This document shows positions 3,822-45,513 of a stretch of 64,000 nt of DNA, in pieces. The notes under the pieces were generated by a model, which was not told where the DNA came from, searched no databases, and saw only the letters and a list, made by a program, of their open reading frames with translations. The position numbers and the translations under genes are program-made. The DNA lies in NCBI RefSeq assembly GCF_055900595.2, contig NZ_CM148325.1, one strand, 5' to 3'. Numbering within the stretch: position 1 is the stretch's first letter; the number at the start of each line of letters is the position of its first letter.

Positions 3822-4858
3822 AGTGCTGCCGCGTTGTAATATTCGTCAGTGTCCGGGGTCATCAGCGCCTGTTCAAGACGTTGCTGTTGTTCGTTATCGC
3901 CCGCCAGCACTGCGGTTTGCTGCGGATTTAACCCCAGTTTGCGGAACAGTTGCAGGTCTTTATCTTCTTCCGGATTCGGCGTGGTCAGCAATTTGCAACC
4001 GTAGAAAATCGAGTTTGCGCCAGCCATAAAGCACATCGCCTGAGTCTGTTCGTTCATCTGCTCGCGTCCGGCAGAAAGGCGCACGTAAGAGGTCGGCATC
4101 ATGATCCGCGCGACTGCAATAGTGCGAATAAAATCAAAGGCATCGACATCATCGTTATCTGCCAGTGGAGTGCCTTTCACCTTCACCAGCATGTTGATTG
4201 GTACGCTTTCCGGCGGCGTCGGCAGGTTTGCCAGTTGCAGCAATAATCCAGCGCGATCTTTTACCGTTTCGCCTAAACCTACAATGCCACCTGAACAGAC
4301 TTTGATCCCGGCATCACGCACTTTTTCCAGCGTGTCGAGACGTTCCTGATAAGTGCGTGTGGTGATGATATTGCCGTAAAACTCCGGCGAGGTGTCGAGG
4401 TTGTGGTTGTAGTAATCCAGCCCGGCATTCGCAAGGCGCTGCGCCTGAGATTCACTCAACGTGCCCAGCGTCATACACGCCTCCAGGCCCATCGCTTTTA
4501 CCCCCTGCACCATCTGTTCCAGGTACGGCATGTCGCGTTCGTGGGGATTCTTCCACGCCGCGCCCATACAGAAACGTGTCGATCCCGCCGCTTTCGCTTT
4601 TCGCGCCGACTCCAATACCTGTTCAACTTCCATCAACCGCTCAGCTTCCAGTCCGGTTTTATAACGCGAGCTTTGCGGGCAGTATTTGCAATCTTCCGGA
4701 CAAGCTCCGGTTTTAATTGACAGCAAAGTACTGACCTGCACCTGACGAGGATCGAAATGCTGACGATGCACCTGCTGCGCTTCAAACAGCAGATCCAGCA
4801 ACGGTTTTTCAAATAATTCTGTGACTTGCGACAATGTCCAGCGTGGGCGGTTAGCCAT
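3818..4858 (-). CDS. bioB: Biotin synthase (radical SAM)
   Basis: 346 aa; [11 protein letters not shown] radical-SAM cysteine motif; divergent from bioA across the bio operator. Confidence 0.92.
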
Positions 4859-29713: not shown

Positions 29714-30315
29714 GCGGCCTCACTTCTGCTATTTCGCAGGTCTTTGAGTTTCTGTTGGTACTCTGCCTTGATCGCCTTGCACTCTTCGACAGTCCAGCGA
29801 TGGCGGCTATGGTTTGATTCGATTTCGTCTACTGCTTCCTGCCCGATGCGGTTAATCAGTTCGACGCGATACGGAACGAGATTTCCGCTTTTGTGCTGGT
29901 TGCACACCACGCATTGCTTGTGAATATTGCGTTCATCAAATCGGAGTTGAGGTGCCGCAGCAGTTGTCCGGTAATGTCCGGCATCCCACTGAGCAGACGT
30001 GAGCGTTCCGCACGAGATACATGGTAAGTCGCGGTCTCTTTCTCTGATGAAGGCGTTTACGGCTTGTTGGGCTTGTTTAATCCAGTAACTGCGGGGCTTT
30101 AAGGCGAGTTTTCGAATCTTCAGTTTATCTTTCTGTTTCTGCTCCTCTCGTCGTCGTTTCTTCTCTGCTGCTTTTTCCGCTTTTTCGCGTTCTTTACTTC
30201 GTCGTTCGAGTGCTAATTGAGTTCCGTGTTCCGGGCTGCACCACCACTGATTTGAGAATGCCGGGTGAAACCATTCCTTGCAGATTTTGCATTTCCTTCG
30301 CGCTGGTTTAGCCAT
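29710..30315 (-). CDS. ninG: NinG (Rap) recombination-promoting endonuclease
   Basis: 201 aa, [31 protein letters not shown]...CVVCNQHK Cys-rich. Confidence 0.85.
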
Positions 30316-39049: not shown

Positions 39050-39757
39050 ATGGATTTGAATAAATTCGATGAGCCATTCAGCCCTGAAGATATCGAATGG
39101 CGAATACAGCAAAGCGGTAAAACACGCGATGGCAAAGTGTGGGCTATGGTGCTGGCTTATGTCACGAACCGGGCAATCATGAAACGCCTGGACGATGTTT
39201 GCGGCAAAGCAGGATGGCGCAATGAATACCGCGATATTCCCAACAACGGCGGAGTTGAATGCGGCATATCAATCAAGATTGATTCCGAATGGGTAACCAA
39301 ATGGGATGCCGCTGAAAACACGCAGGTAGAAGCCGTCAAAGGTGGTCGTTCCGGTGCAATGAAGCGCGCTGCCGTTCAGTGGGGAATCGGTCGGTATCTG
39401 TATAACCTTGAGGAAGGTTTTGCACAAACATCTCTCGATAAAAAGCAGGGATGGCACAGGGCAAAACTCAAGGATGGAACAGGATTTTACTGGCTCCCTC
39501 CATCGCTGCCGGGATGGGCAATCCCAGCATCAGATAACAAACCATCACCAGAAAATACCAACCAGAAATCTCCATCGGTTGACTGCGAACAAATCCTGAA
39601 AGACTTCAGCGATTATGCGTCAACAGAAACTGACAAGAAAAAACTCATCGAGCGTTATCAGCGTGACTGGCAATTAATGGCTGGCAACGAGGAGGCGCAG
39701 GCTAAATGCGTTCAGGTAATGAACATCAGAGTTAACGAACTAAAACAGGCGGCATAA
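39050..39757 (+). CDS. Single-strand annealing protein (Rad52/Sak-like recombinase)
   Basis: 235 aa in the recombination slot of the pL operon; architecture-based inference, not lambda Bet. Confidence 0.55.
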   Translation: MDLNKFDEPFSPEDIEWRIQQSGKTRDGKVWAMVLAYVTNRAIMKRLDDVCGKAGWRNEYRDIPNNGGVECGISIKIDSEWVTKWDAAENTQVEAVKGGRSGAMKRAAVQWGIGRYLYNLEEGFAQTSLDKKQGWHRAKLKDGTGFYWLPPSLPGWAIPASDNKPSPENTNQKSPSVDCEQILKDFSDYASTETDKKKLIERYQRDWQLMAGNEEAQAKCVQVMNIRVNELKQAA

Positions 39758-40225
39758 ATGTCTCACTTGGACGGAATTATTAAAAGATTCGAGTCCAGCT
39801 ACAAAGTTAATGAAACAACAGGTTGCTGGGAGTCTACCTATTCAAAAAACAAAGGAGGATACACAAAATTTGTAGCCTTTGGCGTAACAATGCTTTCTCA
39901 TCGGGTTGCTTTTGAGCTTTATCACTCCCCCATTCCATCTGGGAAGATGGTTTGCCACAAATGCGATAACCCATGCTGCGTTAATCCTGAACATCTCTTT
40001 TTAGGTAGCGCGCAAGAAAACATGGACGACAAGATAGCAAAAGGAAGGCATCGTGGAGCCAAGAAAGGTCATGCTCATCATGGTGCAAAATTAACAGAGT
40101 GGCAGGTTATAGAAATTAGGAAAAGACTCTCTGAAAAAGAGAGTCAGTACAAGATAGCAAAAGACATGGGTGTATCTCAATCAATTATAAGCAACATAAA
40201 AACTGGCAAGAGGTGGAGCAAATGA
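39758..40225 (+). CDS. HNH endonuclease
   Basis: 155 aa; [11 protein letters not shown]...[29 protein letters not shown]/zinc motif; inserted between annealing protein and SSB. Confidence 0.75.
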
Positions 40226-40728
40226 GTTCTCGCGGGATAAATAAGGTGATTATTCTTGGTCGGGTAGGACAAGACCCGGAAGTTCGATACTCACCATCAG
40301 GAACAGCGTTCGCTAACCTGACAATAGCCACGTCAGAACAATGGCGAGATAAAAATACTGGCGAGCAAAAGGAATTGACTGAATGGCATCGTGTTGCTGT
40401 ATCCGGGAAACTGGCTGAGGTCGTGGGGCAGTATGTGAAAAAAGGTGATCAGATTTATTTCGAGGGAATGCTGAGAACCAGAAAGTGGAAAGACCAGTCA
40501 GGGCAAGACCGTTACACAACCGAGGTTCATGTCGGAATTAATGGTGTGATGCAAATGCTTGGCGGCATTGGCGACAGCAAACAACAAGCATCCAGCAGGC
40601 AATCACAGAAGCCACAGCAGCAATCATCACCAGCACAACACAACGAACCTCCGATGGATTTTGACGACGATATACCCTTTGCACCAGTAACTCTCCCCTT
40701 CCCTCGTCACGCTATTCACGCAATTTAA
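40222..40728 (+). CDS. ssb: Single-stranded DNA-binding protein
   Basis: [48 protein letters not shown]...; OB-fold SSB signature and acidic DFDDDIPF tail motif. Confidence 0.85.
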
Positions 40729-40741
40729 TCAGGAGAAAATC

Positions 40742-41035
40742 ATGCCAGCGCCTCAGTATGGTGCGGATGACCCGCGCCGCTGTTCCGGCAATTCCGTATC
40801 GGAGGTGCTGGATAAATTCAGAAAAAACTACGACCTGATAATGTCGCTACCGCAGGAAACGAAAGAGGAAAAGGAATTTCGCCATTGTATATGGCTTGCA
40901 GAGAAAGAAGAACGCGAGCGAATTTACCAGACATCAATCCGACCATTCCGCAAAGCCACATATACCCACTTCCCTGAAATTGACCCGCGCCTGCGTAATT
41001 ACCGCTCACGCTATGGCGCTATCAGTAATGACTGA
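40742..41035 (+). CDS. Hypothetical early protein
   Basis: 97 aa ORF in operon context. Confidence 0.45.
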
Positions 41036-41045
41036 GGAATTTACC

Positions 41046-41210
41046 ATGAGAGGACTTGCATACAATCCCGGCATTCTTCCGGCAGAAATGATTATTCGCC
41101 AACGCGTAAAGCCAATGCCATCGAGAGAGGAATTGCTTAAGAGAAATTCTTTTCCATCAGTGTATCAAAACAAATATCTGAATGCAATGTGGCGGAGTGG
41201 GAAGAAATGA
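41046..41210 (+). CDS. Small hypothetical protein
   Basis: 54 aa from ATG after GAGGA; tight spacing. Confidence 0.3.
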
Positions 41211-41626
41211 AACAAATGTCACTAATTGAGATGGATGGATTTCTGAAAGGTAAATGCATCCCAAGTGATTTAAAGGTTAACGAAACAAACGCTGATTATC
41301 TGGTGCGTAAATTTGCTGAAGCGGAGGCCAAGTGCGCGGCGCTTGCGGCGGAGAATGAGCTGGCTCGTAAGGCAGTTCAGGCATTCTGCGATGTTGTTGG
41401 CGACAACACCGAGGTTATCGCTGAGGTGGTTGGGCGAGATGGCGTTCTGGTTATTTTGGAGGCCATGAAGGCAACAGGAAATATGCCAGCCACCGATGCT
41501 TTTCTGGCTGAAGTACGGGCGCAGGGTGTTGAATTGTTGCGCGAGCATCCTGCTATCCAGATTTGCTCTTTAACGCACGTATGCGACGAGTTCGCCGCCC
41601 AGCTTCGTCAGGGGGAAGCGGTATGA
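41207..41626 (+). CDS. Hypothetical early protein
   Basis: 139 aa, [16 protein letters not shown]..., overlapping starts/stops with neighbours. Confidence 0.45.
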
Positions 41627-41940
41627 GCATAGTTGATGATTCACATCTTACAGACGAAGTGGTTAACGCCGCTTTCGAAGGTACCAATTTCGGGCGCACT
41701 GATTTCCGCACCATTCTGGCAGAAACAGTTATGAAGCGTGCTGCTGGCTATCACTCTGGCTACACGGCAACGACTATCTGTATTCGCCTGGGATTGCTTG
41801 GCAAACACGATCGCCCGACAAAACTCGGCCTGACCTTCGCTTTCCATCACTACTACAGGCCATGCGTTCGCGAAGCGCTGATTTCGCATAACAGCCTTGA
41901 AGTATGGGCAAAACTTGGAGCACAGGAGTCCGCCAAATGA
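41623..41940 (+). CDS. Hypothetical early protein
   Basis: 105 aa, [20 protein letters not shown]...; ATGA overlap with upstream gene. Confidence 0.45.
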   Translation: MSIVDDSHLTDEVVNAAFEGTNFGRTDFRTILAETVMKRAAGYHSGYTATTICIRLGLLGKHDRPTKLGLTFAFHHYYRPCVREALISHNSLEVWAKLGAQESAK

Positions 41941-42224
41941 GCAACATCAACAAACAGGCGCTGATTGCAAAAATCAAAAAGCAGGCCGAAAGCTTCGACA
42001 CAGTGGTGTTGAGAGAGGATGAAGCTAACGCGCTGCTGGATGAGCTGGAAGCAGCAGAGAAGCGGATTGCTGAACTGGAAGCGCGGGAAATACTGCTCCC
42101 GGAACGTAGCAGCATGCTTCATCGAACAGATTTTCACGATGATTACCAAACGGTAATGGCATACAAAGTTTCTGAAGTCATCGATGCAATCCGCGCCGCT
42201 GGCATTCGTATCAAAGGAGAGTGA
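41937..42224 (+). CDS. Hypothetical coiled-coil protein
   Basis: 95 aa, MSNINKQALIAKIKKQAE...LDELEAAEKRIAELEAREI. Confidence 0.45.
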   Translation: MSNINKQALIAKIKKQAESFDTVVLREDEANALLDELEAAEKRIAELEAREILLPERSSMLHRTDFHDDYQTVMAYKVSEVIDAIRAAGIRIKGE

Positions 42225-42225
42225 T

Positions 42226-42447
42226 ATGGCTAACTCATTACTTGAAACCTGCAACAACTGGCAGATTCAGAGGGCGGAGATTTTATCTCGCAATCCAGAT
42301 ATGGCAATGACAATTGATAATCTGGACACGCTAATTGAACGGACCGTGCGTTCTGCAATTGATATAGCACATCGAGTGGATTGGGATTTCAGAGAAGCGG
42401 AGCGACTTGCTAAAGAGCAGGCGAAAGCAGCGGGTAAAGGAGAGTGA
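42226..42447 (+). CDS. Hypothetical early protein
   Basis: 73 aa, MANSLLETCNNWQIQRAEIL...; start within repeated AAAGGAGAGTGATATGG junction. Confidence 0.45.
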   Translation: MANSLLETCNNWQIQRAEILSRNPDMAMTIDNLDTLIERTVRSAIDIAHRVDWDFREAERLAKEQAKAAGKGE

Positions 42448-42448
42448 T

Positions 42449-42646
42449 ATGGATAAAAACACCACTGCTTACTGGAGTCTTTCACTTGATACCGAATGTC
42501 CCAAATGCGGCCACAATTTCGATCTGCTTTGCGATGCTGATTTCTGGGAATTTTCTGGAGCAAAACAGGCATGTGAAGAAATAAAAGGTTACGAAACATG
42601 CTGCCCAGAATGTAACCATGAATTTAAAACAGATTTTGTGTATTGA
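42449..42646 (+). CDS. Small zinc-ribbon protein
   Basis: 65 aa with CPKCGH...CCPECNH four-Cys motif. Confidence 0.5.
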   Translation: MDKNTTAYWSLSLDTECPKCGHNFDLLCDADFWEFSGAKQACEEIKGYETCCPECNHEFKTDFVY

Positions 42647-42656
42647 GGCATAACGA

Positions 42657-43466
42657 ATGACCACTTTTACTAAAGAACAATTAATAGAGATAATTAAGCG
42701 CAATATAACGGTTATGGATCGTTATCCTGATTTAGTAACTGCACAAATGGATCTGGAAGTATACAAAATTGCGCTGGCATCACTGGAAGCAGAACCAGTT
42801 GCTTATATTTTCAAACATCCGGCCGGGAAATTATTCTGGGCTTTAACGGATGAAAGCAATAAAGAGCAACCGGACGTTATTCCTGTTTATGCTGACTCAC
42901 CTGCGCCGGTTGTGCCGGATGAAATAGACGTAAACGATGTACCAAGGGCGGTGACATATTTCAAGACACACAGAGATTGTTACGCAGATGGCTGGAACGC
43001 CTGCCGCGCCGCCATGCTTCAGTCCGGAAACTTTCGGGAAAACAAGAATTCGTCAACCAATAATTTTCGGGAAATCGCGGAAACGTCAACCAACTATCCG
43101 GTAATTCCTAGTGAGGTGTTGTCCGCAATCCTGAAGGTTGCCAAGATTCGTGCCGATTTCGATGATTTTGACGGTGACAGGCGAGGTATCGGTGATTGTC
43201 TGGATGAGGCTGAGCAAGAGCTTATCGTTACCATTAACAAATATGCCAGTCAGTTGGCAGCAGAACCGATAGCGACTAATGACGTTCGAGAGCAAACAGC
43301 CGTTCCGCCAGTTCCTGTAATACAGGCTGATGTCGCGCAGGCAATTGAAAAACTCAAACGGAAATTAGTGGAATGCAATCGCTATAACTACTGCGCAGAT
43401 GCAGTTAAGGGCGTTGAGTATGCCTGCCACGCTGCCACGCTGCCACGCTGCCATGCTTCAGGGTAG
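42657..43466 (+). CDS. Hypothetical early protein with 8-bp tandem repeat near its 3' end
   Basis: 269 aa ORF; C-terminus encoded by CTGCCACG x3. Confidence 0.5.
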   Translation: MTTFTKEQLIEIIKRNITVMDRYPDLVTAQMDLEVYKIALASLEAEPVAYIFKHPAGKLFWALTDESNKEQPDVIPVYADSPAPVVPDEIDVNDVPRAVTYFKTHRDCYADGWNACRAAMLQSGNFRENKNSSTNNFREIAETSTNYPVIPSEVLSAILKVAKIRADFDDFDGDRRGIGDCLDEAEQELIVTINKYASQLAAEPIATNDVREQTAVPPVPVIQADVAQAIEKLKRKLVECNRYNYCADAVKGVEYACHAATLPRCHASG

Positions 43467-43857
43467 CCAACCTGTAAGCCAAACTTACAAGTTTCCAGTT
43501 AATACACCTTGCCAGGATGCGCCAGCCCATATCTGGCTGCAAACAGCTGGAGTATGGCCAGAAGATGGCGAGTTAAGCGAATTAACGTGGTGCAGCCACA
43601 ATCAGCACCATGATGACACGCTATATGTTCGAGCTGACTTGGTAAATGGCAATTCTCCGGTAACTCCGGATGGTTGGATAAGCTGTAGTGATCGAATGCC
43701 AAACGAAGAAGATGTTTTGGTTTATTGCTCAGACACTAAAGAGCAGATGGTAGGGTTTCACAAAGGTAAAGGGTTATTTCAATTCTTTTACATGAATGGT
43801 GTTGAGGGGGTATGTGAGCCGTCACACTGGATGCCGCTACCAGAGCCTCCACTTTGA
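43399..43857 (+). CDS. DUF551-like protein (overlapping ORF in another frame)
   Basis: C-terminal motif HWMPLPEPP as I recall for DUF551; true start uncertain. Confidence 0.4.
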   Translation: MQLRALSMPATLPRCHAAMLQGSQPVSQTYKFPVNTPCQDAPAHIWLQTAGVWPEDGELSELTWCSHNQHHDDTLYVRADLVNGNSPVTPDGWISCSDRMPNEEDVLVYCSDTKEQMVGFHKGKGLFQFFYMNGVEGVCEPSHWMPLPEPPL

Positions 43858-43953
43858 AAGCGAAGCTTATACATATCTTTTACATCAGCAATCTATTGTT
43901 AATCTCCAATCAATGTTACGTTGTCATCTCACTCATGCTTTGGAGGTAGTGAT

Positions 43954-44133
43954 ATGTCTTGTCCAAAATGCGGTTCTGGAAATATTGCAAAAGAAAAAAC
44001 AATGCGTGGATGGTCTGGTGATTATGTGTGCTGCGATTGCGGATACAACGACTCTAAAGACGCATTTGGAGAGCGTGGTAAAAACGAGTTTGTCAAAATT
44101 AATAAAGATCGCGAAGGCAACGGAAAAAGCTAA
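43954..44133 (+). CDS. Small zinc-ribbon protein
   Basis: 59 aa MSCPKCGSGNIAKEK...CCDCGYN; RBS GGAGG. Confidence 0.45.
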   Translation: MSCPKCGSGNIAKEKTMRGWSGDYVCCDCGYNDSKDAFGERGKNEFVKINKDREGNGKS

Positions 44134-44198
44134 TTTATTTATTCATATATGAAAACAATGTAACCAATATTCGAATTGAAGAACTGAAAGAACACCAA

Positions 44199-44220
44199 GC
44201 CGCCTGATGGCGGTTTTTTC
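44199..44220 (+). terminator. Hairpin plus T-run upstream of xis
   Basis: GCCGCCTGATGGCGG followed by TTTTTTC. Confidence 0.5.
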
Positions 44221-44246
44221 TTGCGTGTAATTGCGGAGACTTTGCG

Positions 44247-44465
44247 ATGTACTTGACACTTCAGGAGTGGAACGCACGCCAGCGACGCCCAAGAAGCCTT
44301 GAAACAGTTCGTCGATGGGTACGCGAGTGCAGGATATTCCCTCCTCCGGTTAAGGATGGAAGAGAGTATCTGTTCCACGAATCAGCGGTAAAGGTTGACT
44401 TAAATCGACCAGTAACAGGTAGCCTTTTGAAGAGGATCAGAAATGGGAAGAAGGCGAAGTCATGA
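44247..44465 (+). CDS. xis: Excisionase Xis
   Basis: 72 aa MYLTLQEWNARQRRPRSLETVRRWVRECRIFPPPVKDGREYLFHESAVKVDLNRP, lambda Xis. Confidence 0.92.
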   Translation: MYLTLQEWNARQRRPRSLETVRRWVRECRIFPPPVKDGREYLFHESAVKVDLNRPVTGSLLKRIRNGKKAKS

Positions 44466-45513
44466 GCGCCGGGATTTACCCCCTAACCTTTATATAAGAA
44501 ACAATGGATATTACTGCTACAGGGACCCAAGGACGGGTAAAGAGTTTGGATTAGGCAGAGACAGGCGAATCGCAATCACTGAAGCCATACAGGCCAACAT
44601 TGAGTTATTTTCAGGACACAAACACAAGCCTCTGACAGCGAGAATCAACAGTGATAATTCCGTTACGTTACATTCATGGCTTGATCGCTACGAAAAAATC
44701 CTGGCCAGCAGAGGAATCAAGCAGAAGACACTCATAAATTACATGAGCAAAATTAAAGCAATAAGGAGGGGTCTGCCTGATGCTCCACTTGAAGACATCA
44801 CCACAAAAGAAATTGCGGCAATGCTCAATGGATACATAGACGAGGGCAAGGCGGCGTCAGCCAAGTTAATCAGATCAACACTGAGCGATGGATTCCGAGA
44901 GGCAATAGCTGAAGGCCATATAACAACAAACCCTGTCGCTGCCACTCGCGCAGCAAAATCAGAGGTAAGGAGATCAAGACTTACGGCTGACGAATACCTG
45001 AAAATTTATCAAGCAGCAGAATCATCACCATGTTGGCTCAGACTTGCAATGGAACTGGCTGTTGTTACCGGGCAACGAGTTGGTGATTTATGCGAAATGA
45101 AGTGGTCTGATATCGTAGATGGATATCTTTATGTCGAGCAAAGCAAAACAGGCGTAAAAATTGCCATCCCAACAGCATTGCATGTTGATGCTCTCGGAAT
45201 ATCAATGAAGGAAACACTTGATAAATGCAAAGAGATTCTTGGCGGAGAAACCATAATTGCATCTACTCGTCGCGAACCGCTTTCATCCGGCACAGTATCA
45301 AGGTATTTTATGCGCGCACGAAAAGCATCAGGTCTTTCCTTCGAAGGGGATCCGCCTACCTTTCACGAGTTGCGCAGTTTGTCTGCAAGACTCTATGAGA
45401 AGCAGATAAGCGATAAGTTTGCTCAACATCTTCTCGGGCATAAGTCGGACACCATGGCATCACAGTATCGTGATGACAGAGGCAGGGAGTGGGACAAAAT
45501 TGAAATCAAATAA
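44443..45513 (+). CDS. int: Tyrosine integrase Int
   Basis: 356 aa MGRRRSHERRDLPPNLYIRNNGYYCYRDPRTGKEFGLGRDRRIAITEAIQAN...; overlaps xis; catalytic R/HxxR/Y region (HELRSL...Y); lambda Int. Confidence 0.95.
   Translation: MGRRRSHERRDLPPNLYIRNNGYYCYRDPRTGKEFGLGRDRRIAITEAIQANIELFSGHKHKPLTARINSDNSVTLHSWLDRYEKILASRGIKQKTLINYMSKIKAIRRGLPDAPLEDITTKEIAAMLNGYIDEGKAASAKLIRSTLSDGFREAIAEGHITTNPVAATRAAKSEVRRSRLTADEYLKIYQAAESSPCWLRLAMELAVVTGQRVGDLCEMKWSDIVDGYLYVEQSKTGVKIAIPTALHVDALGISMKETLDKCKEILGGETIIASTRREPLSSGTVSRYFMRARKASGLSFEGDPPTFHELRSLSARLYEKQISDKFAQHLLGHKSDTMASQYRDDRGREWDKIEIK

Follow-up and report, generated by a model that had tools for sequence, protein, structure and literature searches.

Two consecutive small genes in the early-left operon of a prophage end in the same short stretch of stop, ribosome-binding and start signals. 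We asked whether this repeat is simply a strong context for translation initiation or a joint through which small early genes have been shuffled. Phage mosaicism has been debated for decades, either as homologous exchange at boundary sequences or as random illegitimate joints followed by selection. The sequence analysed, hereafter the window, is a 64,000-nucleotide stretch of contig NZ_CM148325.1 (NCBI RefSeq assembly GCF_055900595.2). The repeat lies in the early-left operon (also called exo-xis or "ea") of a P22-like/lambdoid prophage that occupies the lambda attachment site; the features around it are collected in Table 1.

Table 1. Features around the junction cassette, in window coordinates.
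Feature	Position	Strand	Description and source
Rad52/Rad22-family single-strand annealing protein	39050..39757	+	Pfam PF04098, E 5e-26; PGAP
HNH	39758-40225		same operon as Rad52-like gene; PGAP
SSB	40213-40728		same operon as Rad52-like gene
Anti-RecBCD Abc2	40742-41035		same operon as Rad52-like gene
Gene A	41937..42224	+	95-aa short ead/Ea22-like protein, C-terminus ..AGIRIKGE; ORF, PGAP annotation of 99.7% identical twin
Conserved coiled-coil island within gene A	42030..42092	+	clustered homology start/end points; BLAST matches starting at query 477/484/513
'Type I' upstream extension of patch	42192..42212	+	CGCGCCGCTGGCATTCGTATC, R-A-A-G-I-R-I
Junction cassette copy 1	42213..42229	+	AAA GGA GAG TGA T ATG G; direct repeat D3
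Gene B	42226..42447	+	73-aa module, cassette at both ends; phrog_10585
Junction cassette copy 2	42436..42452	+	identical 17-mer, 223 nt 3' of copy 1; D3
Gene C	42449..42646	+	65-aa CxxC...CxxC protein; downstream class D05
Related boundary sequence	43001..43022	+	CTGCCGCGCCGCCATGCTTCAG (..ACRAAMLQ); direct repeat D1, second copy 43440-43461

An identical cassette closes two adjacent genes

The 17-mer AAAGGAGAGTGATATGG occurs exactly twice in the window, both times in the same register at consecutive gene junctions. This bears out the first-pass annotation, which had described an identical 17-nt RBS-start cassette closing two adjacent KGE genes and placed it within 1-3 bases of the exact copies. 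Copy 1 covers the final three codons (KGE) of gene A with its stop, the SD GGAG and the ATG of gene B: ..IKGE-TGA ends at 42224 and the next ATG stands at 42226. Copy 2 does the same for genes B and C, with ..GKGE-TGA ending at 42447 and the ATG at 42449. Both copies place GGAG 6 nt before the ATG and leave 1 nt between TGA and ATG, which is the geometry of a coupling junction (SD 5-9 nt from the start, stop a few nt from the start). Nearby junctions in the operon are ATGA overlaps, for example at 41937. A search of the window with up to three mismatches gave no further match to the cassette, where shuffled sequences lead one to expect 0.07. No promoter-like or terminator-like sites were found at the cassettes, genes A-C lying within one transcription unit, and no SD-sequestering structure was predicted there.

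The same annotation had counted a third similar junction at 43940-43956, and here the observation of a repeated cassette has to be cut back to its two-copy part. The sequence concerned, GGAGGTAGTGATATG at 43942-43956, can be aligned to the cassette only with an indel and lies inside a ~97-nt non-coding spacer 5' of Eag (43954-44133), with no stop/start overlap. Its 8 occurrences in related loci all have the same left and the same right flank class. A role as a shuffling joint is thus ruled out, and GGAGGTAGTGATATG is Eag's own RBS.

The cassette joins many unrelated genes

Gene A gives only a weak match to Pfam Ead_Ea22 (E 0.0028, under the curated cutoff), and its PHROG matches are to the C-terminal ends of several families. 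Gene B is rare, being absent from all 80 loci anchored on Abc2, and was seen in three differing neighbour contexts, namely the window and loci L089 and L101; in L101 its 3' junction is a hybrid, AAAGGAGAG|GCATCATGA. Gene C follows at least 5 different upstream genes. The shuffled genes, scanned against Pfam and PHROG, matched almost entirely 'unknown' families, one HNH excepted, and gave no tie to a known function.

For a broader view, IMG/VR loci were chosen for the exact 17-mer. Among the matches listed, the cassette runs from the stop of one gene into the start codon of its neighbour in ~118 enterobacterial junctions. Their far-upstream flanks fall into at least 31 classes and their downstream flanks into at least 16, in at least 59 upstream-by-downstream combinations; many of the loci are near-identical prophages, and occurrence counts are not independent events. 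A complete 2x3 recombinant matrix (L024/L048/L022 vs L103/L040/L052) provides four-gamete evidence, with flank identities of 95-100% within the same class and 19-34% between different classes. A second set was chosen independently of the motif and consisted of 80 loci selected via the Abc2 gene. In these, the core AAAGGAGAGTGA was the top-ranked 12-mer for flank diversity on both sides, with 11-12 left classes and 18 right classes over 42 occurrences. The exact 17-mer is present in 10/81 ea regions, and variants with up to three mismatches in ~45/81.

Breakpoints of homology fall at the same place. In 20-28 of the 80 loci, homology to the window shrinks to an island of ~24-48 nt exactly at copy 1, bounded on the left at 42186-42201 and on the right at 42224-42233. 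At copy 2, BLAST matches in Salmonella P22-like phages and E. coli records start at query 869/877/883, corresponding to window 42428-42442. The polymorphic base 13 of the cassette (TGA[T/G]ATG) tracks the downstream gene, with 1 of 24 downstream classes mixed, and is mixed within 7 upstream classes, while the upstream extension segregates with the upstream gene. Because base 13 follows the downstream gene, the joints lie 5' of it, inside the shared core or the extension, as far as the ~12-30-nt patch to which breakpoint resolution is limited. Modular shuffling of small early genes through short linkers, as suggested at first pass, is therefore supported by the combinatorial flanks, the islands at copy 1 and the flank diversity of the top-ranked 12-mer; the check proposed with it, a comparison of the motif in related phages with gene-content breakpoints, came out positive for both combinatorial joins and homology islands.

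The patch extends upstream of the cassette. The type I extension contains a ~15-nt core, GCTGGCATTCGCATC, that is common to many otherwise unrelated Ead/Ea22 C-terminal domains, and together with the cassette it forms a patch of up to ~38 nt. Four extension types were distinguished, and the sequence common to all of them is only 12-17 nt. In other phages CTGCCGCGCCGCCATGCTTCAG directly precedes the cassette as the 'type III' extension (..AAMLQ/HG-KGE), and in the window a homology island around it (42981-43026) was recovered in 18 loci. Judging from its clustered homology ends, the coiled-coil island of gene A is likely the partner crossover patch for exchange of the Ea22 C-terminal domain (42093-42185).

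Hundreds of phages of E. coli, Salmonella and Shigella contain the same junction, where it links a wide range of unrelated gene pairs. The patch island matches 368 phage records and is present in 2328 of 5426 complete E. coli genomes (43%), at up to 9 places per genome. In phage lambda, the 3' end of ea22 is a decayed copy of the cassette in which ATG has become ATC, with the extension present. HK620 carries the cassette with one mismatch at hkaG/hkaF and the extension at the hkaG 3' end, and P7 upf88.3 has an exact copy plus the extension, with homology to the window stopping at 42230. Stx phages and Salmonella P22-like phages carry the cassette as well.

A boundary sequence or illegitimate joints

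The cassette is most probably a conserved boundary (linker) sequence of the exo-xis/'ea' accessory region of enterobacterial temperate phages, acting as both a coupling joint and a crossover patch. As a joint, it would provide compact translational coupling in the polycistronic early-left transcript: AAA GGA GAG at the end of the upstream gene carries the SD of the next gene, followed by the TGA stop, one base and the ATG start, and translation would be coupled across it. As a patch, the same 12-17 bases (~38 with the extension), with which many unrelated genes end in resident prophages as in co-infecting phages, would let crossovers join any upstream to any downstream module, with both genes intact and expressed. 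A gene flanked by two copies, like gene B, would become an insertable and deletable module. We infer that the crossovers are driven by homology and catalysed by phage recombinases. The most plausible catalysts are Rad52-like annealing proteins; one is encoded 2.5 kb upstream and is a candidate enzyme for exchange over short homology. Where homology is short or diverged, exchange is dominated by Rad52-like recombinases, and minimal pairing lengths of 23-27 bp (Red-beta) and 31-34 bp (RecA) have been published (PMC3945230). The common 12-17 nt fall short of the published minimum for efficient pairing, and some joints may therefore be illegitimate or microhomology events kept by selection.

Applied to all joints, the latter idea becomes the Juhala/Hendrix model of illegitimate recombination and selection, in which joints are random, those at boundaries survive and the cassette travels as the RBS of one neighbour. 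The model accommodates the right edge of homology, which is razor-sharp after ATGG(C), as well as extension types that share less sequence than the published MEPS and the many mosaic joints without conserved boundary sequences mentioned in the searchable passages of the literature (PMC3233612). It does not account for the independent variation of the two flanks, relative both to the cassette and to each other. Moreover, an extension that tracks the upstream gene and a base 13 that tracks the downstream gene place the joint within the shared patch, and random joints should not remake the same 17 nt in at least 59 contexts. As a general explanation we consider the illegitimate model unlikely.

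No signature of site-specific recombination

Small promoterless genes lined up with a repeated junction between them also bring to mind a site-specific system, with the cassette as the target of an integron-like recombinase or of a homing endonuclease that drives conversion of the flanking genes. An HNH endonuclease gene does lie behind the cassette in 3 loci, and another HNH is encoded in the window (Table 1). Against such a system, no dyad symmetry or hairpin was detected at the cassettes (folding z-scores +0.65 and -0.91), no inverted repeats were found in 41000-44300 and the cassette region had no Rfam match; with no inverted repeats, an attC-like or palindromic recombination site is ruled out. 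No recombinase co-occurs consistently with the cassette, and no integron integrase with attI and a cassette promoter was found adjacent to it. The sole integrase, a tyrosine recombinase of the lambda type, has an attachment site of its own and adjoins xis and the host ybhC junction. A site-specific system is thus very improbable. The cassette was separately rejected as an RNA element, terminator or promoter, given the missing Rfam match, significant fold and consensus site.

Neither a generic ribosome site nor a local duplication

The remaining question is whether identity at the two junctions could arise from function. We compared the 64 SD+ATG contexts in the window whose ORFs are 50 aa or longer, giving 2016 pairs. 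The cassette pair has a Hamming distance of 0/17; the next closest pair differs at 3 positions and the mode is 10. Across 100,044 species (298 Gb), the 17-mer gave 86 scattered matches vs ~35 by chance, which is about chance level, and among these genomes an ea-type context was confined to Escherichia, Enterobacter and a handful of contaminated contigs. The window statistics and the species scan together exclude a generic RBS, and with it the outcome named at first pass as fatal to the shuffling idea, namely a motif no commoner than strong RBS contexts in general.

The same data bear on functional convergence, by which an optimal stop/SD/start layout would have been reached independently at each junction. 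A GGAG placed 6 nt ahead of the ATG, with the stop just one base ahead of it, makes for good coupling design, yet the identity extends to positions that SD, stop and start leave unconstrained, and the other 62 contexts in the window mostly differ at ~10 of 17 positions. Convergence is further at odds with the chance-level frequency across species, with nested upstream extensions common to unrelated genes and with the confinement of the motif to enterobacterial temperate phages; we regard it as effectively refuted. Where the KGE codons vary, the changes are mostly non-synonymous (GAC, GGG and GCC, giving KGD, KGG and KGA), which argues against selection on a C-terminal KGE peptide. An RF2-style programmed +1 frameshift at GAG-TGA-T was rejected from the sequence alone, as P-site GAG cannot re-pair on AGU. 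Least probable of all is a local tandem duplication, which would fit two direct copies 223 nt apart but is refuted by the comparative data, since genes A, B and C have nothing in common outside the cassette and single cassettes occur in hundreds of other phages.

Relation to known systems

Susskind and Botstein (1978) reportedly put forward a modular-evolution model with boundary or linker sequences of lambdoid phages, and Clark et al. (2001) are said to have described 'seven short conserved sequences' in HK620. The cassette is a fresh instance of this kind. By sequence comparison it combines unrelated flanks, a gene-boundary position and reassorting modules, and crossovers appear to map within the patch. 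Lambdoid boundary sequences are characterized, in the searchable passages of one account, as short and conserved, located at module borders in the non-structural half of the genome, with unrelated flanks, and as a proposed focus of homologous recombination (PMC3233612). The cassette resembles them in being short and conserved with unrelated DNA on either side, and HK620 itself holds the one-mismatch copy. Unlike them, it belongs to the accessory ea/exo-xis block and does not separate major functional modules, and it is made of the stop, SD and start signals themselves. A full-text literature search with the 13-mer GGAGAGTGATATG returned no relevant paper, and the junction is not mentioned in the searchable passages of papers on phage L, epsilon34, lambdoid co-transfer and Ea22.

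Gene A lies in a region, and belongs to a gene family, already recognized as mosaic. The Ead/Ea22 proteins of lambda and Stx phages have a conserved N-terminal coiled coil and swappable C-terminal domains in a 'highly mosaic' exo-xis region, according to the searchable passages of work from the Donaldson laboratory (PMC10834534, PMC8614690). In those passages the conserved AGIRIKGE tail with the stop/SD/start cassette is not mentioned, whether as the right-hand limit of the exchanged domain or as the link to the gene that follows.

Other recurring junctions share single traits with the cassette. The PeSL cassettes of T4-type phages are conserved expression signals flanking small, mostly unknown ORFs in hyperplastic regions, and modular shuffling by recombination between copies has been proposed for them (Arbiol et al. 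2010, PMC2839356; Comeau et al. 2014, PMC4122927). The cassette is likewise a conserved expression signal between shuffled small ORFs, but the analogy is functional only: PeSLs are transcription signals (early promoter plus stem-loop terminator) of lytic myoviruses, whereas the cassette is a translation signal, without structure, inside one operon of temperate phages. With coupled junctions of the ATGA/TGATG type it shares an SD in the last codons of the upstream gene and a stop a few bases from the next start; ordinary coupled junctions, however, are not sequence-identical between unrelated gene pairs. Small promoterless accessory genes, a recurring junction element and combinatorial gene content recall integron gene cassettes (attC). 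In contrast to these, it has neither an attC-like imperfect inverted repeat nor an IntI-type integrase, and any exchange would proceed by general or short-homology recombination.

Implications

As a boundary sequence, the cassette accounts for the fragmented annotation and clustering of the exo-xis/ea region, and it marks the exchange site of accessory genes, mostly 'dark matter', in Shiga-toxin and other prophages. It is an unusually clean and abundant natural test case, a defined patch with dozens of flank combinations, and it could be recoded without altering the expression signals. More tentatively, and with less than even confidence, the exo-xis/ea region might be a 'plug-and-play' gene array without a dedicated recombinase. 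The KGE-stop-SD-ATG adaptor would then guarantee expression and be the preferred crossover point for phage annealing proteins, and selection for evolvability would maintain it across lambdoid, P22-like and even P1-like (P7) phages. If this is true, the cassette would be to these phages what attC sites are to integrons, a functional analogue made of translation signals, and through it the dispute between homologous and illegitimate mosaicism could be approached directly by experiment.

A stop/Shine-Dalgarno/start cassette in the early-left operon

A P22-like/lambdoid prophage is inserted next to ybhC in the lambda attachment region, with its early-left (pL) operon on the + strand at ~37.5-45.5 kb. 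Named after the PGAP annotation of E. coli EC332, a twin with 99.7% identity, the genes are in order N, Rad52/Rad22-family protein, HNH, SSB, anti-RecBCD (Abc2), DUF2737, two hypotheticals, three small genes (A, B and C), DUF551 genes, Eag, xis and int. The exo-xis (ea) accessory region is described as dispensable, mostly uncharacterised and highly mosaic (PMC8614690, PMC10834534). The whole 2.6-kb arrangement was found in 1 of 5,426 complete E. coli genomes and in no phage record.

The first-pass annotation had pointed to an identical 17-nt cassette at two consecutive gene boundaries. Indeed, the 64-kb window holds two exact copies of AAAGGAGAGTGATATGG (see the table), and no further match at up to 3 mismatches; shuffles predict 0.07. 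Both copies read AAA GGA GAG TGA T ATG G. One gene ends here with three codons for K-G-E and its stop, and a GGAG Shine-Dalgarno (SD) sequence lies 6 nt before the next ATG, which is followed by the first base of codon 2. Gene A starts in an ATGA overlap, and other junctions of the operon are likewise tight. The cassette is a stop/SD/start unit within a polycistronic operon. Searches for promoter-like and terminator-like sites, Rfam families, inverted repeats and significant RNA folds found none at the cassettes.

Cassettes, neighbouring genes, homology islands and 5' extensions of the cassette
Feature	Position	Strand	Sequence	Description
Cassette copy 1	42213-42229	+		joins gene A / gene B
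Cassette copy 2	42436-42452	+		joins gene B / gene C
Gene A	41937-42224	+		95 aa, ead/Ea22-like
Gene B	42226-42447	+		73 aa
Gene C	42449-42646	+		65 aa
Other homology island	41485-41538
Other homology island	42030-42092			Ea22 coiled coil
Other homology island	42981-43026			ACRAAMLQ sequence
Other homology island	43642-43712			DUF551 domain start
Other homology island	44160-44232
Type I extension			GCTGGCATTCGCATC	AGIRI
Type II extension			GCCGCAGCCGGT	AAAG
Type III extension			GCCATGCTTCA(G/T)GGG	AAMLQ/HG
Type IV extension			..CACTTGCGCACT	HLRT

A third junction, GGAGGTAGTGATATG (43942-43956), had also been considered similar, which did not hold: it aligns with the cassette only via an indel and sits in a ~97-nt spacer before Eag. 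Its neighbours are invariant in related loci (a single class on each side across 8 occurrences), and it was therefore rejected as a shuffling joint and assigned as Eag's own RBS. The family phrog_2945 matches both the Eag frame (43954-44133, E 2.4e-30) and an overlapping alternative frame (43796-44152, E 2.5e-16), which suggests either a real overlapping gene or a family that combines ORFs predicted in two frames of one DNA stretch.

Several other features lie nearby. The genes for the Rad52-family recombinase and SSB are separated by an inserted free-standing HNH endonuclease gene (39758-40225); the modules that immediately follow the cassette in other phages include a different HNH gene, of 121 aa. 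The ~480 nt at 41550-42030, which take in the 5' end of gene A and a 105-aa hypothetical gene (41623-41940), had no homolog at ≥85% identity among 80 loci anchored on Abc2 and are a rare module. The 8-bp tandem repeat CTGCCACG is present in three copies in the window (43424-43447) and four in EC332 (comparison locus L001, 7865-7896), the sole difference between them in 2.6 kb. With four copies, or with one as in 8 other loci, the ORF from 42657 is fused in frame with the DUF551 domain (402 aa); with three it is split into 269 aa (42657-43466) and 134 aa (43453-43857). Copy number could act as a slipped-strand on/off or fusion switch.

The cassette is more than a strong ribosome-binding context

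Had the motif been no commoner than strong RBS contexts, the shuffling proposed in the first-pass annotation would have lost its basis. Among 64 SD+ATG contexts opening ORFs of ≥50 aa in the window, compared at the same 17 positions (2,016 pairs), Hamming distances had a mode of 10; the cassette pair scored 0 and the next closest pair 3. A scan of one genome per species (100,044 prokaryotic species, 298 Gb) found the 17-mer in 86 stretches scattered over unrelated phyla, of the same order as the ~35 expected by chance from 4^17, and most were not at gene-gene junctions. Apart from a few contaminated MAGs or contigs, phage-type context was confined to one Escherichia and one Enterobacter genome. 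In contrast to this near-chance count, at least 120 loci on IMG/VR viral contigs carry the 17-mer, and ~90% of those listed are enterobacterial ea regions, so that the refuting condition does not hold and a generic RBS context is rejected. E. coli-phage ea sequence with the cassette was present in a 427-bp Xanthomonas pisi DSM 18956 contig and in MAGs assigned to Collinsella sp. and Segatella copri (L214, L226, L227, L278), probably through binning or assembly contamination.

Flanking modules reassort across the cassette

In the IMG/VR loci listed, the cassette always ends the upstream ORF in ..KGE and begins the downstream ORF with M-A/D. After dereplication, these loci comprised at least 31 far-upstream classes, at least 16 downstream classes and at least 59 combinations. 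They include a complete 2x3 recombinant matrix, in which two upstream genes each occur with three downstream genes, flank identity being 95-100% within classes versus 19-34% between them. Three different neighbourhoods contain gene B, one of them with a hybrid 3' junction (AAAGGAGAG joined to GCATCATGA), and other mini-genes are also flanked by two cassettes (e.g. a 64-aa ORF, 196-nt period). These comparisons show that flanking modules reassort across the cassette.

A motif-independent sample was obtained by collecting 80 loci via the neighbouring Abc2 gene. Of the 81 ea regions scored, 10 carried the exact 17-mer and ~45 a variant with ≤3 mismatches, mainly AAAGGAGAGTGA[T/G]ATG[G/A]. When every 12-mer was scored for the diversity of sequences 12-42 nt away on both sides, the core AAAGGAGAGTGA ranked first (42 occurrences, 11-12 left and 18 right classes). 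A second recurrent junction, AGCTTCGCAAAGGAGGCAACCAGTGAG, came just behind and is found at hkaH/hkaG of phage HK620. BLAST of window 40700-44500 against the 80 loci revealed a chain of short homology islands with unrelated DNA between them; in 20-28 loci, one island begins at 42186-42201 and stops at 42224-42233, corresponding to the first cassette with its type I extension. Five of the 80 loci contained gene C and none contained gene B. Several conserved islands are in-frame domain linkers (FLAEV..., ACRAAMLQ, and DGWISCSDRMP at the start of DUF551), and ACRAAMLQ is present twice, 439 nt apart (second at 43440-43461).

The position of the joints can be read from the variation around the core. 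Similarity on the 3' side in the IMG/VR loci listed ceases directly after ATGG, except for an 88% preference for C, giving an Ala codon. On the 5' side, the cassette has nested extensions (types I-IV), each common to several otherwise unrelated genes. Base 13 (TGA[T/G]ATG) co-varies with the downstream gene, being mixed in only 1 of 24 downstream classes; it is mixed within 7 upstream classes. The extension goes with the upstream gene, not the downstream one. Breakpoints thus fall within the shared core plus extension, as predicted by exchange within an identity patch and not as expected if the cassette belonged to one neighbour. KGE codon variants in the Abc2-anchored loci are mostly non-synonymous (KGD, KGG, KGA), indicating that the peptide is not what is conserved.

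The cassette is widespread in enterobacterial phages

A ~40-48-nt island matched 368 phage records (Escherichia, Stx-converting, Salmonella and Shigella phages) and 2,328 of 5,426 complete E. coli genomes, at 4,331 places (up to 9 per genome, 261 on plasmids), annotated in E. coli as 'ead/Ea22-like family protein' plus the following gene. The HK620 hkaG/hkaF junction carries AAAGGAGAGTGAGATGG. In lambda, ea22 ends in GCTGGCATTCGCATCAAAGGAGAGTGAGATCGG, a relic of the cassette in which the downstream ATG is changed to ATC and no gene follows. The decayed cassette there, AAAGGAGAGTGAGATCGG (29840-29875; L203 1500-1535), has lost its start codon and is followed by ~190 nt of apparently non-coding DNA up to ea8.5.

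An exact cassette lies at upf88.3/upf89.0 of the P1-like phage P7, whose 96% homology to the window stops at 42230 and restarts at 42767. The ea-region modules of P7 (NC_050152.1 88328-90826), joined by the cassette, are 96-97% identical to those of the window's lambdoid prophage. Recent exchanges have been described within the lambda-like group and within the P1-P2-Mu group, but none across the two (PMC3945230), so that the P7 modules look like an exception. The product of upf89.0 is a common 171-aa module (MALTHRELCQ...), for which the RefSeq label 'minor tail protein' looks like a mis-annotation.

A possible route of exchange and its precedents

We infer that exchange at the cassette is short-homology recombination, most plausibly via phage single-strand-annealing proteins, which would make crossovers at the short identity patch. 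The same operon encodes a Rad52-family annealing protein (Pfam E 5e-26), SSB and an anti-RecBCD protein, and where homology is short or diverged, exchange is dominated by Rad52-like recombinases of phages (PMC3945230). The second crossover that a module exchange needs would be supplied by the island chain, or by a second cassette as around gene B. Minimal efficient pairing is 23-27 bp for Red-beta and 31-34 bp for RecA (PMC3945230), and RecET events at 5-13 bp are very rare (PMC2327257). The type I patch (27-38 nt) is long enough for pairing; the 12-17 nt common to different extension types are marginal. Because of this marginal stretch, some founding joints may have been microhomology or illegitimate events retained by selection, and a Hendrix-type model of mosaicism is kept as an unlikely alternative for the cassette as a whole. 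Annealing at the patch is a plausible mechanism, and the earlier proposal that small early genes are shuffled through short linkers is supported by the flank recombinants, the homology island and the top-ranked core.

Susskind and Botstein reportedly proposed linkers, and Clark et al. in 2001, as cited in PMC3233612, are said to have described seven short boundary sequences, conserved in lambdoid 'metabolic domains', as proposed recombination foci; the cassette may be one of these seven. The concept is old, and the cassette is a further, very well supported example. Its closest functional analogues are the PeSL cassettes of T4-type phages, which, unlike it, are transcription signals with a stem-loop (PMC2839356, PMC4122927). 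Integron attC sites resemble it in outcome only, their defining hairpin and integrase being absent here. Mosaic C-terminal domains of Ea22 are recognised in the searchable passages of PMC8614690 and PMC10834534, which make no mention of a conserved tail and junction, and a search of a full-text library of 8 million papers found the motif string in no relevant one. Being ubiquitous in E. coli prophages, and anticipated as a concept, makes the cassette ordinary; it nevertheless brings to the long-standing dispute on the origin of phage mosaicism a clean example that is abundant and experimentally tractable.
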